Shown: in pieces, positions 1 through 29,687 of the stretch
Position numbering within the stretch: position 1 is the stretch's first letter
How the letters are laid out: every line of letters begins with the position of its first letter
Source: Nemertoderma westbladi
Lineage: Eukaryota > Animalia > Xenacoelomorpha
NCBI GenBank assembly: GCA_032718475.1
Contig: JAUCBJ010007177.1
Span: forward strand, 92,072 to 156,071
DNA length: 64,000 nucleotides
Reading direction: 5' to 3'
Notes under the pieces: model-generated
The model's input: only the letters and a program-made list of their open reading frames with translations
Told to the model about the DNA's origin: nothing
Database searches by the model: none
Made by a program: the position numbers and the translations under genes

Positions 1-3000
1 GTAGTGGTGGTGGTTCAGTAAACTAACCTAACACCACTTATAGACGAGTAGTGGTGGTGGTTCAGTAAACTAACCTTCACCACTTATAGACGAGTAGTGG
101 TGGTGGTTCAGTAAACTAACCTTCACCACTTATAGACGAGTAGTGGTGGTGGTTCAGTAAACTAACCTGACACCACTTATAGACGAGTAGTGGTGGTGGT
201 TTAGTAAACTAACCTACACCACTTATAGACGAGTAGTGGTGGTGGTTCAGTAAACTAACCTACACCACTTATAGACGAGTAGTGGTGGTGGTTCAGTAAA
301 CTAACCTACACCACTTATAGACGAGTAGTGGTGGTGGTTCAGTAAACTAACCTACACCACTTATAGACGAGTAGTGGTGGTGGTTCAGTAAACTAACCTG
401 ACACCACTTATAGACGAGTAGTGGTGGTAGTTCAGTAAACTAACCTGACACCACTTATAGACGAGTAGTTCAGTAAACTAACCTTCACCACTTATAGACG
501 AGTAGTGGTGGTGGTTCAGTAAACTAACCTTCACAACTTATAGACGAGTAGTGGTGGTGGTTCAGTAAACTAACCTTCACCACTTATAGACGAGTAGTGG
601 CGGTGGTTCAGTAAACTAACCTTCACCACTTATAGACGAGTAGTGGTGGTGGTTCAGTAAACTAACCTTCACCACTTATAGACGAGTAGTGGTGGTGGTT
701 CAGTAAACTAACCTGACACCACTTATAGACGAGTAGTGGTGGTGGTTTAGTAAACTAACCTACACCACTTATAGACGAGTAGTGGTGGTGGTTCAGTAAA
801 CTAACCTACACCACTTATAGACGAGTAGTGGTGGTGGTTCAGTAAACTAACCTTCACCACTTATAGACGAGTAGTGGCGGTGGTTCAGTAAACTAACCTT
901 CACCACTTATAGACGAGTAGTGGTGGTGGTTCAGTAAACTAACCTTCACCACTTATAGACGAGTAGTGGCGGTGGTTCAGTAAACTAACCTTCACCACTT
1001 ATAGACGAGTAGTGGTGGTGGTTCAGTAAACTAACCTTCACCACTTATAGACGAGTAGTGGCGGTGGTTCAGTAAACTAACCTACACCACTTATAGACGA
1101 GTAGTGGTGGTGGTTCAGTAAACTAACCTACACCACTTATAGACGAGTAGTGGCGGTGGTTCAGTAAACTAACCTTCACCACTTATAGACGAGTAGTGGT
1201 GGTGGTTCAGTAAACTAACCTTCACCACTTATAGACGAGTAGTGGCGGTGGTTCAGTAAACTAACCTTCACCACTTATAGACGAGTAGTGGCGGTGGTTC
1301 AGTAAACTAACCTTCACCACTTATAGCCGAGTAGTTCAGTAAACTAACCTGACACCACTTATAGACGAGTAGTGGTGGTGGTTCAGTAAACTAACCTAAC
1401 ACCACTTATAGACGAGTAGTGGTGGTGGTTCAGTAAACTAACCTGATACCACTTATAGCCGAGTAGTGGCGGTGGTTCAGTAAACTAACCTTCACCACTT
1501 ATAGACGAGTAGTGGTGGTGGTTCAGTAAACTAACCTTCACCACTTATAGACGAGTAGTGGCGGTGGTTCAGTAAACTAACCTACACCACTTATAGACGA
1601 GTAGTGGTGGTGGTTCAGTAAACTAACCTACACCACTTATAGACGAGTAGTGGCGGTGGTTCAGTAAACTAACCTTCACCACTTATAGACGAGTAGTGGT
1701 GGTGGTTCAGTAAACTAACCTTCACCACTTATAGACGAGTAGTGGCGGTGGTTCAGTAAACTAACTTGACACCACTTATAGACGAGTAGCGGTGGTGGTT
1801 CAGTAAACTAACCTTCACCACTTATAGCCGAGTAGTGGTGGTGGTTTAGTAAACTAACCTACACCACTTATAGACGAGTAGTGGTGGTGGTTCAGTAAAC
1901 TAACCTTCACCACTTATAGCCGAGTAGTTCAGTAAACTAACCTGACACCACTTATAGACGAGTAGTGGTGGTGGTTCAGTAAACTAACCTGACACCACTT
2001 ATAGACGAGTAGTGGTGGTGGTTCAGTAAACTAACCTTCACCACTTATAGACGAGTAGTGGTGGTGGTTTAGTAAACTAACCTACACCACTTATAGACGA
2101 GTAGTGGTGGTGGTTCAGTAAACTAACCTACACCACTTATAGACGAGTAGTGGCGGTGGTTCAGTAAACTAACCTGACACCACTTATAGACGAGTAGTGG
2201 TGGTGGTTCAGTAAACTAACCTTCACCACTTATAGACGAGTAGTGGCGGTGGTTCAGTAAACTAACCTTCACCACTTATAGCCGAGTAGTTCAGTAAACT
2301 AACCTACACCACTTATAGACGAGTAGTGGCGGTGGTTCAGTAAACTAACCTGACACCACTTATAGACGAGTAGTGGTGGTGGTTCAGTAAACTAACCTGA
2401 CACCACTTATAGCCGAGTAGTGGTGGTGGTTCAGTAAACTAACCTGACACCACTTATAGCCGAGTAGTTCAGTAAACTAACCTACACCACTTATAGACGA
2501 GTAGTGGTGGTGGTTCAGTAAACTAACCTGACACCACTTATAGACGAGTAGTGGTGGTGGTTCAGTAAACTAACCTGACACCACTTATAGACGAGTAGTG
2601 GTGGTGGTTCAGTAAACTAACCTTCACCACTTATAGCCGAGTAGTTCAGTAAACTAACCTTCACCACTTATAGACGAGTAGTAGTGGTGGTTCAGTAAAC
2701 TAACCTTCACCACTTATAGACGAGTAGTGGTGGTGGTTCAGTAAACTAACCTTCACCACTTATAGCCGAGTAGTGGTGGTGGTTCAGTAAACTAACCTGA
2801 CACCACTTATAGCCGAGTAGTGGTGGTGGTTCAGTAAACTAACCTTCACCACTTATAGCCGAGTAGTGGTGGTGGTTCAGTAAACTAACCTGACACCACT
2901 TATAGACGAGTAGTGGTGGTGGTTCAGTAAACTAACCTGACACCACTTATAGCCGAGTAGTGGTGGTGGTTTAGTAAACTAACCTACACCACTTATAGAC

Positions 3001-27000: not shown

Positions 27001-29687
27001 GTGGTGGTGGTTCAGTAAACTAACCTTCACCACTTATAGACGAGTAGTGGCGGTGGTTCAGTAAACTAACCTGACACCACTTATAGACGAGTAGTGGTGG
27101 TGGTTCAGTAAACTAACCTTCACCACTTATAGCCGAGTAGTTCAGTAAACTAACCTGACACCACTTATAGACGAGTAGTGGTGGTGGTTCAGTAAACTAA
27201 CCTGACACCACTTATAGACGAGTAGTGGTGGTGGTTCAGTAAACTAACCTTCACCACTTATAGCCGAGTAGTTCAGTAAACTAACCTGACACCACTTATA
27301 GCCGAGTAGTGGTGGTGGTTCAGTAAACTAACCTACACCACTTATAGACGAGTAGTGGTGGTGGTTCAGTAAACTAACCTTCACCACTTATAGCCGAGTA
27401 GTGGTGGTGGTTCAGTAAACTAACCTGACACCACTTATAGACGAGTAGTGGCGGTGGTTCAGTAAACTAACCTTCACCACTTATAGACGAGTAGTGGTGG
27501 TGGTTCAGTAAACTAACCTTCACCACTTATAGACGAGTAGTGGTGGTGGTTCAGTAAACTAACCTTCACCACTTATAGACGAGTAGTGGCGGTGGTTCAG
27601 TAAACTAACCTTCACCACTTATAGACGAGTAGTGGCGGTGGTTCAGTAAACTAACCTTCACCACTTATAGACGAGTAGTGGTGGTGGTTCAGTAAACTAA
27701 CCTGACACCACTTATAGCCGAGTAGTGGCGGTGGTTCAGTAAACTAACCTTCACCACTTATAGACGAGTAGTGGTGGTGGTTCAGTAAACTAACCTTCAC
27801 CACTTATAGACGAGTAGTGGTGGTGGTTCAGTAAACTAACCTTCACCACTTATAGACGAGTAGTGGCGGTGGTTCAGTAAACTAACCTTCACCACTTATA
27901 GACGAGTAGTGGTGGTGGTTCAGTAAACTAACCTGACACCACTTATAGACGAGTAGTGGTGGTGGTTCAGTAAACTAACCTGACACCACTTATAGACGAG
28001 TAGTGGCGGTGGTTCAGTAAACTAACCTGACACCACTTATAGACGAGTAGTGGTGGTGGTTCAGTAAACTAACCTTCACCACTTATAGACGAGTAGTGGC
28101 GGTGGTTCAGTAAACTAACCTTCACCACTTATAGACGAGTAGTGGTGGTGGTTCAGTAAACTAACCTGACACCACTTATAGACGAGTAGTGGTGGTGGTT
28201 CAGTAAACTAACCTGACACCACTTATAGACGAGTAGTGGTGGTGGTTCAGTAAACTAACCTTCACCACTTATAGACGAGTAGTGGTGGTGGTTCAGTAAA
28301 CTAACCTGACACCACTTATAGACGAGTAGTGGCGGTGGTTCAGTAAACTAACCTTCACCACTTATAGACGAGTAGTGGTGGTGGTTCAGTAAACTAATCT
28401 TCACCACTTATAGCCGAGTAGTGGTGGTGGTTCAGTAAACTAACCTTCACCACTTATAGACGAGTAGTGGCGGTGGTTCAGTAAACTAACCTTCACCACT
28501 TATAGACGAGTAGTTCAGTAAACTAACCTTCACCACTTATAGACGAGTAGTGGCGGTGGTTCAGTAAACTAACCTGACACCACTTATAGACGAGTAGTGG
28601 TGGTGGTTCAGTAAACTAACCTTCACCACTTATAGACGAGTAGTGGTGGTGATTCAGTAAACTAACCTGACACCACTTATAGACGAGTAGTGGCGGTGGT
28701 TCAGTAAACTAACCTGACACCACTTATAGACGAGTAGTGGTGGTGGTTCAGTAAACTAACCTGACACCACTTATAGACGAGTAGTGGTGGTGGTTCAGTA
28801 AACTAACCTGACACCACTTATAGACGAGTAGTGGCGGTGGTTCAGTAAACTAACCTGACACCACTTATAGACGAGTAGTGGTGGTGGTTCAGTAAACTAA
28901 CCTGACACCACTTATAGACGAGTAGTGGCGGTGGTTCAGTAAACTAACCTGACACCACTTATAGACGAGTAGTGGCGGTGGTTCAGTAAACTAACCTTCA
29001 CCACTTATAGACGAGTAGTGGTGGTGGTTCAGTAAACTAACCTGACACCACTTATAGACGAGTAGTGGCGGTGGTTCAGTAAACTAACCTGACACCACTT
29101 ATAGACGAGTAGTGGTGGTGGTTCAGTAAACTAACCTGACACCACTTATAGACGAGTAGTGGCGGTGGTTCAGTAAACTAACCTGACACCACTTATAGAC
29201 GAGTAGTGGTGGTGGTTCAGTAAACTAACCTGACACCACTTATAGACGAGTAGTGGCGGTGGTTCAGTAAACTAACCTGACACCACTTATAGACGAGTAG
29301 TGGCGGTGGTTCAGTAAACTAACCTTCACCACTTATAGACGAGTAGTGGTGGTGGTTCAGTAAACTAACCTGACACCACTTATAGACGAGTAGTGGTGGT
29401 GGTTCAGTAAACTAACCTGACACCACTTATAGACGAGTAGTGGTGGTGGTTCAGTAAACTAACCTTCACCACTTATAGCCGAGTAGTGGCGGTGGTTCAG
29501 TAAACTAACCTTCACCACTTATAGACGAGTAGTGGCGGTGGTTCAGTAAACTAACCTGACACCACTTATAGACGAGTAGTGGTGGTGGTTCAGTAAACTA
29601 ACCTGACACCACTTATAGACGAGTAGTGGTGGTGGTTCAGTAAACTAACCTGACACCACTTATAGACGAGTAGTGGTGGTGGTTCAG
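1..29687. repeat. Giant intronic satellite, 46/47-bp unit (37/38-bp deletion variants), roughly 640 copies, runs off the left edge of the window
   Basis: Uninterrupted tandem copies of GTAGTGGTGGTGGTTCAGTAAACTAACCTGACACCACTTATAGACGA with variants CTTCACC/CTACACC/CTAACACC, GGC/GGT, GCC/GAC and a 9-bp deletion. The last copy overlaps the PRP8 exon. Copy number is length divided by unit size. Confidence 0.98.

Follow-up and report, generated by a model that had tools for sequence, protein, structure and literature searches.

The PRP8 exon and its transcripts

PRP8 is essential in the eukaryotes that have been studied. The window, that is the whole 64-kb stretch of DNA that was analysed, holds a single PRP8 exon, which lies on the minus strand (Table 1). 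Positions 1-29687 consist of one tandem array (period 46, 655.4 copies; TRF), while the inferred upstream intron contains two tandem arrays that are unrelated to this donor-bearing satellite. No further PRP8 exon was found in the 64-kb window by tblastn (7 of 120 hits) or with an upstream-exon motif (0 matches). A lone exon whose donor is displaced upstream by one base from the position usual for this intron in PRP8 could be an orphan or dead exon, a candidate that is rejected by the spliced contigs described below.

Table 1. Features of the PRP8 locus in the window
Feature	Position	Strand	Remarks
PRP8 coding exon, 192 nt, 64 aa	29650..29841	-	corresponds to human Prp8 894-957, E 1.6e-38; in spliced contigs X4 and X5
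3' splice site of upstream intron, ends TTTCAG	29842..29866	-	used in spliced contigs; position as in many orthologues
Inferred upstream PRP8 intron, at least 34 kb	29842..64000	-	contains 32-bp satellite, BEL/Pao element, PINX1-like ORF and 31-bp repeat
Tandem array, 655 complete units of 47/46/38/37 bp plus partial unit	1..29685	-	fills 5' part of PRP8 intron, continues beyond window start
Unit 1, array template: 36 final exon nt and 11 initial intron nt	29639..29685	-	
CT overlap, 2 nt, common to exon and unit end	29686..29687	-	possible duplication junction
Donor 1, CAG/GTTAGT	29644..29652	-	cut between 29650 and 29649, phase 0; used in spliced contigs
Donor 2, same sequence as donor 1	29597..29605	-	its use would lengthen the exon by 47 nt and change the frame
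First in-frame stop on read-through, TGA	29590..29592	-	included when donor 3 or a later donor is used

Contigs from two studies connect the exon to the rest of the gene. One of 6490 nt (depth 128) from run X5 and one of 324 nt (depth 8.25) from run X4 match the window only within 29649-29843, and their loose ends, read by hand, continue upstream as ...HLLTQRAFKE and downstream as GINNLQDVWD; in orthologous Prp8 proteins these residues border the exon on its two sides. Both contigs exit at donor 1 and run after CAG straight into the Gly-Ile-Asn codons, without the 11 intron bases of the unit. X4 and X5 are taken to be RNA from their exon-only cover and spliced flanks, none of the listed runs that contain the sequence being recorded as RNA. 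These flanks were judged not to stem from a processed PRP8 retrocopy, as the exon is covered in each of the DNA runs X1 and X2 by one contig that passes from exon into intron with no joints. Since the spliced contigs leave at donor 1, the locus with its array is likely to be the working gene. Neither later-donor nor satellite sequence was present in the one contig examined per run. X4 shares its sample with the DNA run X2, which carries the satellite, and the satellite-free cover of X4 and X5 is not proof that the satellite is missing there. Donor 1 dominates in the assembled transcripts, where minor isoforms are invisible; contigs drop rare isoforms and NMD would hide the products of later donors, so that they do not establish donor 1 as the sole donor in use.

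Composition of the satellite and its donors

An earlier note on this DNA had described the array as units of the exon end joined to its own 5' splice site, and the parse bears this out. Read along the minus strand from 29685, the array resolves into 655 complete units with zero interruptions, each built on 36 terminal exon bases (12 codons) and 11 intron bases, with lengths of 46 nt (338 units), 47 nt (236), 37 nt (49) and 38 nt (32). There are 44 distinct unit types; 130 of the 655 units, including units 1-3, are identical to the unit at the exon junction. As the window start cuts the array within a 16-nt partial unit, from which the array extends past the edge, 30 kb is a lower bound on its length, and crude read depth puts the whole at about 80-165 kb. 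The satellite is very abundant in the DNA runs X1, X2 and X3, which come from two studies, and one-base deletion variants are common to all three. Its depth relative to single-copy sequence varies by run, and library bias masks any copy-number variation, X2 and X3 being about 4.6-fold apart in one sample. Unit 16-mers, with one mismatch allowed, were found nowhere else in the window. The point of origin of the satellite can be located with a precision of two bases: the CT microhomology that had been proposed as the joint is present, as TCTGAA in the exon and ACTGAA in the unit, but it amounts to just 2 nt, and its true extent is readable only at the far array end, beyond the window.

The donor motif AG/GTTAGT is kept in 639 of the 655 units, as had been claimed, with AAG (296), CAG (247) or TAG (96) preceding the GT; only one of the 16 units that lack the motif has lost the GT itself. 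Donors 2 and 3 match donor 1 at every base. Over the whole array the base at -3 differs from the C of the exon in about 60% of units. The calculated U1 duplex energies are -8.2 kcal/mol for CAG, -6.7 for AAG and -6.6 for TAG, and no GTRAGT donor occurs among the 655 units. In predicted local folds donors 1-10 are mostly paired (unpaired probability 0.002-0.015), with donor 1 no more accessible than donors 2-10.

Translation confirmed the claims that donor 2 adds 47 nt and breaks the frame, that read-through meets a stop at 29590 and that only the first donor is productive. The TGA comes before donor 3 and every donor after it (translations covered donors 2-12), and use of any later donor either breaks the frame or includes the stop. 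A frameshift or premature stop of this kind gives later donors a potential, and a potential only, for an unproductive outcome of the NMD type. The phrase "hundreds of decoy donors", used in the earlier note, thus holds as a description of the sequence and not as a demonstrated function.

The variation within the array is unevenly distributed. Only one of 25 distinct substitution alleles falls in the 11 intron bases (p 0.011 by length, approximately 0.026 with base composition), a depletion that fades to p 0.23 in a post hoc test admitting every possible 11-nt window; both deletions fall in the exon part of the unit. Invariance of the intron bases could reflect a constraint on the donors, a weak and marginal signal, given that positions +7 to +11 are equally invariant though they lie largely beyond the donor core (+1 to +6) and positions -3 to -1 vary freely across units. 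Rare variants reappear some 275-365 units apart, and one identical run extends over 32 units, compared with at most six in 50 shuffles.

Origin of the array and rival readings

It is quite probable that a single tandem duplication of 47 bp, taking in the PRP8 exon end and its donor, gave rise to the satellite and that it grew neutrally, while the spliced transcripts observed leave at the first donor. Slippage or repair at the 2-nt CT overlap may have duplicated the junction, and unequal exchange may then have expanded it, with the local runs and a duplicated block of about 275-365 units as its possible products. Co-transcriptional exon definition would tie the 192-nt exon to the first donor, as in human F7, this commitment preceding competition from later donors. 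Rare transcripts from donor 2 or beyond would presumably be cleared by NMD; the removal of so few would cost little, and the array would not be purged by selection. Neutral growth is also favoured by the departure of most units from the C at -3, by the lack of any GTRAGT donor, by the recurring rare variants and the 32-unit run, and by the unrelated tandem arrays in the upstream intron. The array is therefore likely to be a tolerated by-product, an unusually large case of a repeat type known from several human genes. Amplification of the junction as a tolerated by-product was among the options in the earlier note, and it is the one that agrees with the donor-1 contigs and with the described class, in which the upstream donor wins (PMC1557585).

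Error in the assembly, by which the exon end would have been wrongly joined to a satellite from elsewhere or a short repeat inflated, is highly improbable. Contigs do break at 29658, where repetitive words begin, so that a bridge from the exon into a long array is absent from public records, and X1 is possibly the source sample itself. The great depth of the satellite and its common deletion variants are nevertheless found in runs from two studies, and the depth implies more copies than the window contains, not fewer. An array of 44 unit types in diverged blocks, whose exon-adjoining units are identical to the exon, also speaks against such an error, and none of the loose-end rows shown (12/14) has a unique continuation past the donor.

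A co-opted junction array of thousands of copies, in which the choice of donor reports spliceosome activity and tunes PRP8 output, is unlikely. Such a system could act through unproductive use or through silent recursive steps; the length of the array would be its heritable dial, and the donor bases in the intron would be maintained by selection. As a feedback sensor, the array would send a fraction of transcripts to donor 2 or beyond for destruction by NMD, in response to the level of the spliceosome or of Prp8. Splicing factors often autoregulate through unproductive splicing. The unproductive nature of all later donors, the identity of donors 2 and 3 with donor 1 and the marginal invariance of the intron bases agree with a sensor, as does the leak to the next two donors described for human IFI6 and CBS (PMC1557585). 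Against it, two or three donors would suffice and hundreds are unneeded; the repeated exon end, or the other frames of the unit, occur in 0 of 213 Prp8 proteins or fragments, a set in which close relatives may be lacking; 12 of the 13 PRPF8 passages of one source describe no autoregulation of PRPF8 (PMC12427521); and, as weaker evidence, the X4 and X5 contigs show no later-donor or satellite sequence. A sensor is thus distinctly unlikely. For this proposal and for that of a U1 sink, both raised by the earlier note, positive evidence is nil save for the marginal intron-base constraint, though contigs, which drop rare isoforms, would miss a low level of later-donor use.

The sink or scaffold proposal, in which the array RNA binds many U1 snRNPs and either buffers U1 or shields the long intron from premature termination, has the slimmest chance. 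Each transcript would offer at least 639 U1-complementary sites, but these are moderate to weak and drift weaker, and local folding predicts donors 1-10, donor 1 included, to be largely paired. The array contains neither AATAAA nor ATTAAA and leaves nothing to shield against; given the cellular abundance of U1, one locus would take up a small share of it, and the literature search found no direct precedent. A ladder of recursive or dual-specific sites is very unlikely. Splicing from donor 1 to the AG of a unit would regenerate the exon-donor junction, shortening the giant intron stepwise and leaving no trace in the mRNA, which would make it harmless by construction. YAG/GT occurs in 343 units, the tandem AGGT of human UBC serves as donor and acceptor, dual sites tending to have weak motifs (PMC10809524), and exon ends are able to act as acceptors (PMC10156609). 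Yet the minimal motif given in the latter source, Y5+N0-4YAGGT, fits 0 of 655 units, a result that contradicts the recursive ladder suggested earlier. The pyrimidine fraction ahead of the AG is 0.53 compared with 0.71 at the real acceptor, a second AG lies a few bases upstream inside the unit, 296 units have AAG, and the known fly sites have strong juxtaposed motifs (PMC6110457).

Scale and comparison with known systems

What is new is the gene, PRP8, and the scale, with a minimum of 30 kb and a crude depth estimate of roughly 80-165 kb; the class itself is known. A search of titles and abstract openings, with subscription journals mostly outside it, returned no PRP8 intron satellite and no donor array of this size. 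Even if neutral, the array puts 5' splice-site choice to an extreme natural test: at least 638 near-identical donors follow the real one, and PRP8 yields a correct mRNA. Their number is about 25-fold or more that of the human repeats, which have 5-25 copies (PMC1557585). Such an outcome speaks for a first-come commitment set by exon definition, rather than for selection of the donor closest to the acceptor. The array also offers a ruler on which leak could be measured against distance, and regulated use of the later donors, should it occur, would be spliceosome feedback in a new form.

The model of intron gain in which an exonic AG/GT unit is tandemly duplicated fails for this locus, since it needs a wholly exonic unit with one full copy in the mRNA and the spliced contigs lack the 11 unit bases after CAG. 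The fertility genes kl-3 and kl-5 of the Drosophila Y resemble PRP8 in being transcribed genes with very long, satellite-rich introns, which are spliced co-transcriptionally (PMC11207136; PMC6508621), but they are germline-specific, with megabase introns, whereas PRP8 is a housekeeping gene, and the passages on them do not trace the satellite to a splice junction of the gene itself (PMC11207136). Human UBC is likewise a tandem array with AG/GT at one position per unit; its units are coding and a variable number of them is spliced out, while the PRP8 unit is part intron and its mRNA keeps no extras (PMC10809524).

The PRP8 array shares the traits of the human donor-spanning repeats, namely a first monomer across the exon-intron boundary, a reiterated donor and an upstream donor that dominates, here in the contigs. 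In the minisatellites of human F7, IFI6, CBS, LMNB2 and PDGF the donor is repeated 5-25 times, with the first site dominant (PMC1557585). IFI6 (6-16), CBS intron 13, LMNB2 and PDGF, with 10-25 copies each, resemble PRP8 in their minisatellite-borne donor and in the dominant or exclusive use of its first copy, although IFI6 and CBS also splice from two further donors (PMC1557585), while in the PRP8 array every later donor is unproductive. The closest likeness is to the 37-bp VNTR of F7 intron 7, whose first monomer also spans the boundary; of its 5-9 identical donors, none but the most upstream is used (PMC1557585). F7 has these 5-9 copies where the PRP8 array has at least 655, and its unit comprises 4 exon and 33 intron bases as opposed to 36 and 11; the F7 pseudo-sites were proven functional by mutation, while the donors of the PRP8 array are known from their sequence.

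Anatomy of the array and its exon

Tandem Repeats Finder resolves a single array of 655 copies, and a minus-strand parse from position 29685 gives 655 complete units without foreign insertion, plus an incomplete one where the window begins. The 30-kb satellite of the earlier note therefore stands as an array of 655 units, but its length is only a lower bound. There are 44 unit types, with lengths of 46 nt (338 units), 47 nt (236), 37 nt (49) and 38 nt (32). As the note had proposed, the unit joins an exon end to 11 intron bases, unit 1 being the final 36 nt of the 192-nt PRP8 exon and the 11 nt downstream. 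Its near-universal AG/GTTAGT (slash, splice site) was likewise borne out: the motif is retained in 639 of 655 units, as AAG in 296, CAG in 247 and TAG in 96, and is absent from 16, with GT itself lost in one. Use of donor 2, the copy of the site in the second unit, would lengthen the exon by 47 nt and break the frame, and a TGA at 29592-29590 precedes every later donor, both as that note had read them. The structure is as expected of natural growth: rare unit variants reappear about 275-365 units apart, and among stretches separated by at least 50 units the longest identical one spans 32 units, compared with at most 6 in 50 shuffles.

A tblastn search with seven long homologues places a single PRP8 exon within the window, so that an orphan copy was possible. 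This is opposed by one contig from each of X4 and X5, runs tentatively marked 'DNA?' but inferred to be RNA (X4 shares its sample with the satellite-rich DNA run X2). The X5 contig (6,490 nt, depth 128) and the X4 contig (324 nt, depth 8.25) match only 29649-29843, with one difference and none respectively, and a hand reading of their ends in orthologue context gives Prp8 HLLTQRAFKE before the exon and GINNLQDVWD after it. The two contigs, each from a different study, are thus spliced transcripts that exit the exon at donor 1. A retrocopy or a second, near-identical copy of the exon is made less likely by the DNA runs X1 and X2, in each of which a single contig covers the exon and continues into the intron upstream. 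Taken with the spliced contigs, the exon therefore likely lies between introns of at least 29.6 kb and at least 34 kb.

Probable intron shift and neighbouring repeats

The intron following Gln957 has likely undergone a one-base shift, or loss and regain, in a very conserved gene, a point absent from the earlier note. Two pooled searches, with redundant matches, gave 213 sequences that are Prp8 proteins or genomic read-through fragments: 84 stay coding, 126 continue from WCQ-G into unrelated residues, two end WCQ-V and one is without the motif. The commonest residues after WCQ-G are K, E, Q, M, T and N, consistent with an intron that interrupts the Gly codon behind its first base, and 126 of 128 read-through fragments imply this phase 1. 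The canonical GT of the window lies one base earlier, at 29649-29650 (minus), in phase 0 and with the Gly codon intact in the mRNA; the shift is read from proteins rather than DNA, and the confirming acceptor lies outside the window. As every unit has the shifted form, the shift is likely older than the array.

Tandem arrays and insertions build up in this gene irrespective of splice sites. The upstream intron contains the 32-bp satellite with the BEL/Pao element that splits it, the 31-bp repeat and the PINX1-like ORF. The BEL/Pao element is flanked by a 5-bp target duplication, CACTG, and its gag-pol and integrase-end ORFs lie in different frames; its extra ORF matches no Pfam family and has three CCHC knuckles, at residues 914-971. 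The PINX1-like ORF shares the strand of PRP8 and seems to be nested within its intron. The very high-copy element and the mid-copy repeat, both also in X5, are probably dispersed transposon remnants.

Features of the window and their coordinates
Feature	Position	Strand	Details
47-bp array	1-29687		655 copies
PRP8 exon	29841-29650	minus	192 nt; 64 residues matching human Prp8 894-957
Mid-copy repeat	30149-31185		adjoins very high-copy element
Very high-copy short element	31186-31368		summed depth >100,000 in DNA runs
32-bp satellite	31418-33618 and 52369-57976		~240 copies; split by BEL/Pao; begins ~170 bp past PINX1-like stop
BEL/Pao LTR element	33619-52369	minus	18,751 bp; identical 2,169-bp LTRs; within 32-bp satellite
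BEL/Pao extra ORF	36277-40023	minus	1,248 codons, downstream of integrase
BEL/Pao integrase-end ORF	40709-41605		
BEL/Pao gag-pol ORF	41577-48854		
PINX1-like G-patch ORF	58143-58805	minus	putative, intronless; 216 codons searched
31-bp repeat	60109-60805		22 copies
14-16-bp palindrome-like motif repeats	60925-61949		
132-bp duplication	62980-63257		

Copy number and competing explanations

Parts of the region are present in five public runs from three studies. The repeat is much deeper than the single-copy flank in all three DNA runs (summed depth 61,719 vs 6.5 in X1 and 40,580 vs 21.6 in X2; X3 likewise), and one-base deletion variants occur in both DNA studies. In X1, which may be the source sample of the assembly, a 41-nt repeat contig, with words found some 204 times across the window, has a depth of 7,409, while the exon contig stands at 6.5. 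By this ratio the array would exceed its share in the window about 5.6-fold, reaching roughly 3,600 units (165 kb). The figure is good to an order of magnitude only, since depth is not copy number and a difference of about 4.6-fold separates two runs of the same sample; it halves if 6.5 represents one haplotype. A 335-nt X1 contig at a depth of 33.9 has 50 nt of satellite, matching 29600-29649, at one end and 285 further nt; the contig is oriented as would suit either an insertion in the array or its far end. No public run record joins the exon to a long stretch of array, so its attachment at the PRP8 locus rests on the assembly; a misjoin is very unlikely.

The array is real. Most likely it is a neutral by-product, one that is tolerated since commitment to the first donor would come ahead of any to later ones and transcripts leaking to these would be degraded. 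Running against pure neutrality, only one of the 25 different substitution alleles falls in the 11 intron bases (p 0.011 if scaled by length, about 0.026 once base composition is included). The p value rises to 0.23 if the 11-nt window may lie anywhere; invariance is equal at +2 to +6 and at +7 to +11, and -3 to -1 hold five alleles and a deletion. Feedback through unproductive splicing would suit the fact that all later donors are unproductive, but it is improbable: the X4 and X5 contigs, which drop rare variants and from which NMD would hide unproductive forms, include no later-donor use and no satellite contig, and no feedback is mentioned in those passages of PMC12427521 on PRPF8 and NMD that were consulted.

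As to the recursive ladder suggested in the earlier note, YAG/GT is found in 343 units, but the minimal motif Y5+N0-4YAGGT used in PMC10156609 is matched by 0 of 655, and pyrimidines before AG amount to 53% compared with 71% at the true acceptor. Weak dual-specific sites are described as functional in human UBC in a portion of PMC10809524, so the missing motif lowers the idea, which is quite improbable, rather than removing it. The 32-bp satellite, with TAG/GT in most units on the PRP8 sense strand and 38 sites fitting the motif, would for these reasons be the better recursive candidate. That array RNA binds U1 as a sink is the least probable reading. The commonest variants pair worse with the U1 end sequence (-6.7 and -6.6 vs -8.2 kcal/mol for the exon's donor), no unit reaches GTRAGT and the array is without a poly(A) signal.

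Relation to donor-spanning minisatellites

A search of titles and abstract beginnings returned no report of a donor-spanning array this large. According to the portion of PMC1557585 consulted, the human F7, IFI6, CBS, LMNB2 and PDGF minisatellites (5-25 copies) have a boundary-spanning first monomer; in F7 only the most upstream donor is used, through an oriented scanning process that was tested on mutants, and in IFI6 and CBS there is leakage to the two donors that follow. The PRP8 array has the testable features of this class, but differs from these minisatellites in being about 25-fold or more larger and in its location in PRP8.
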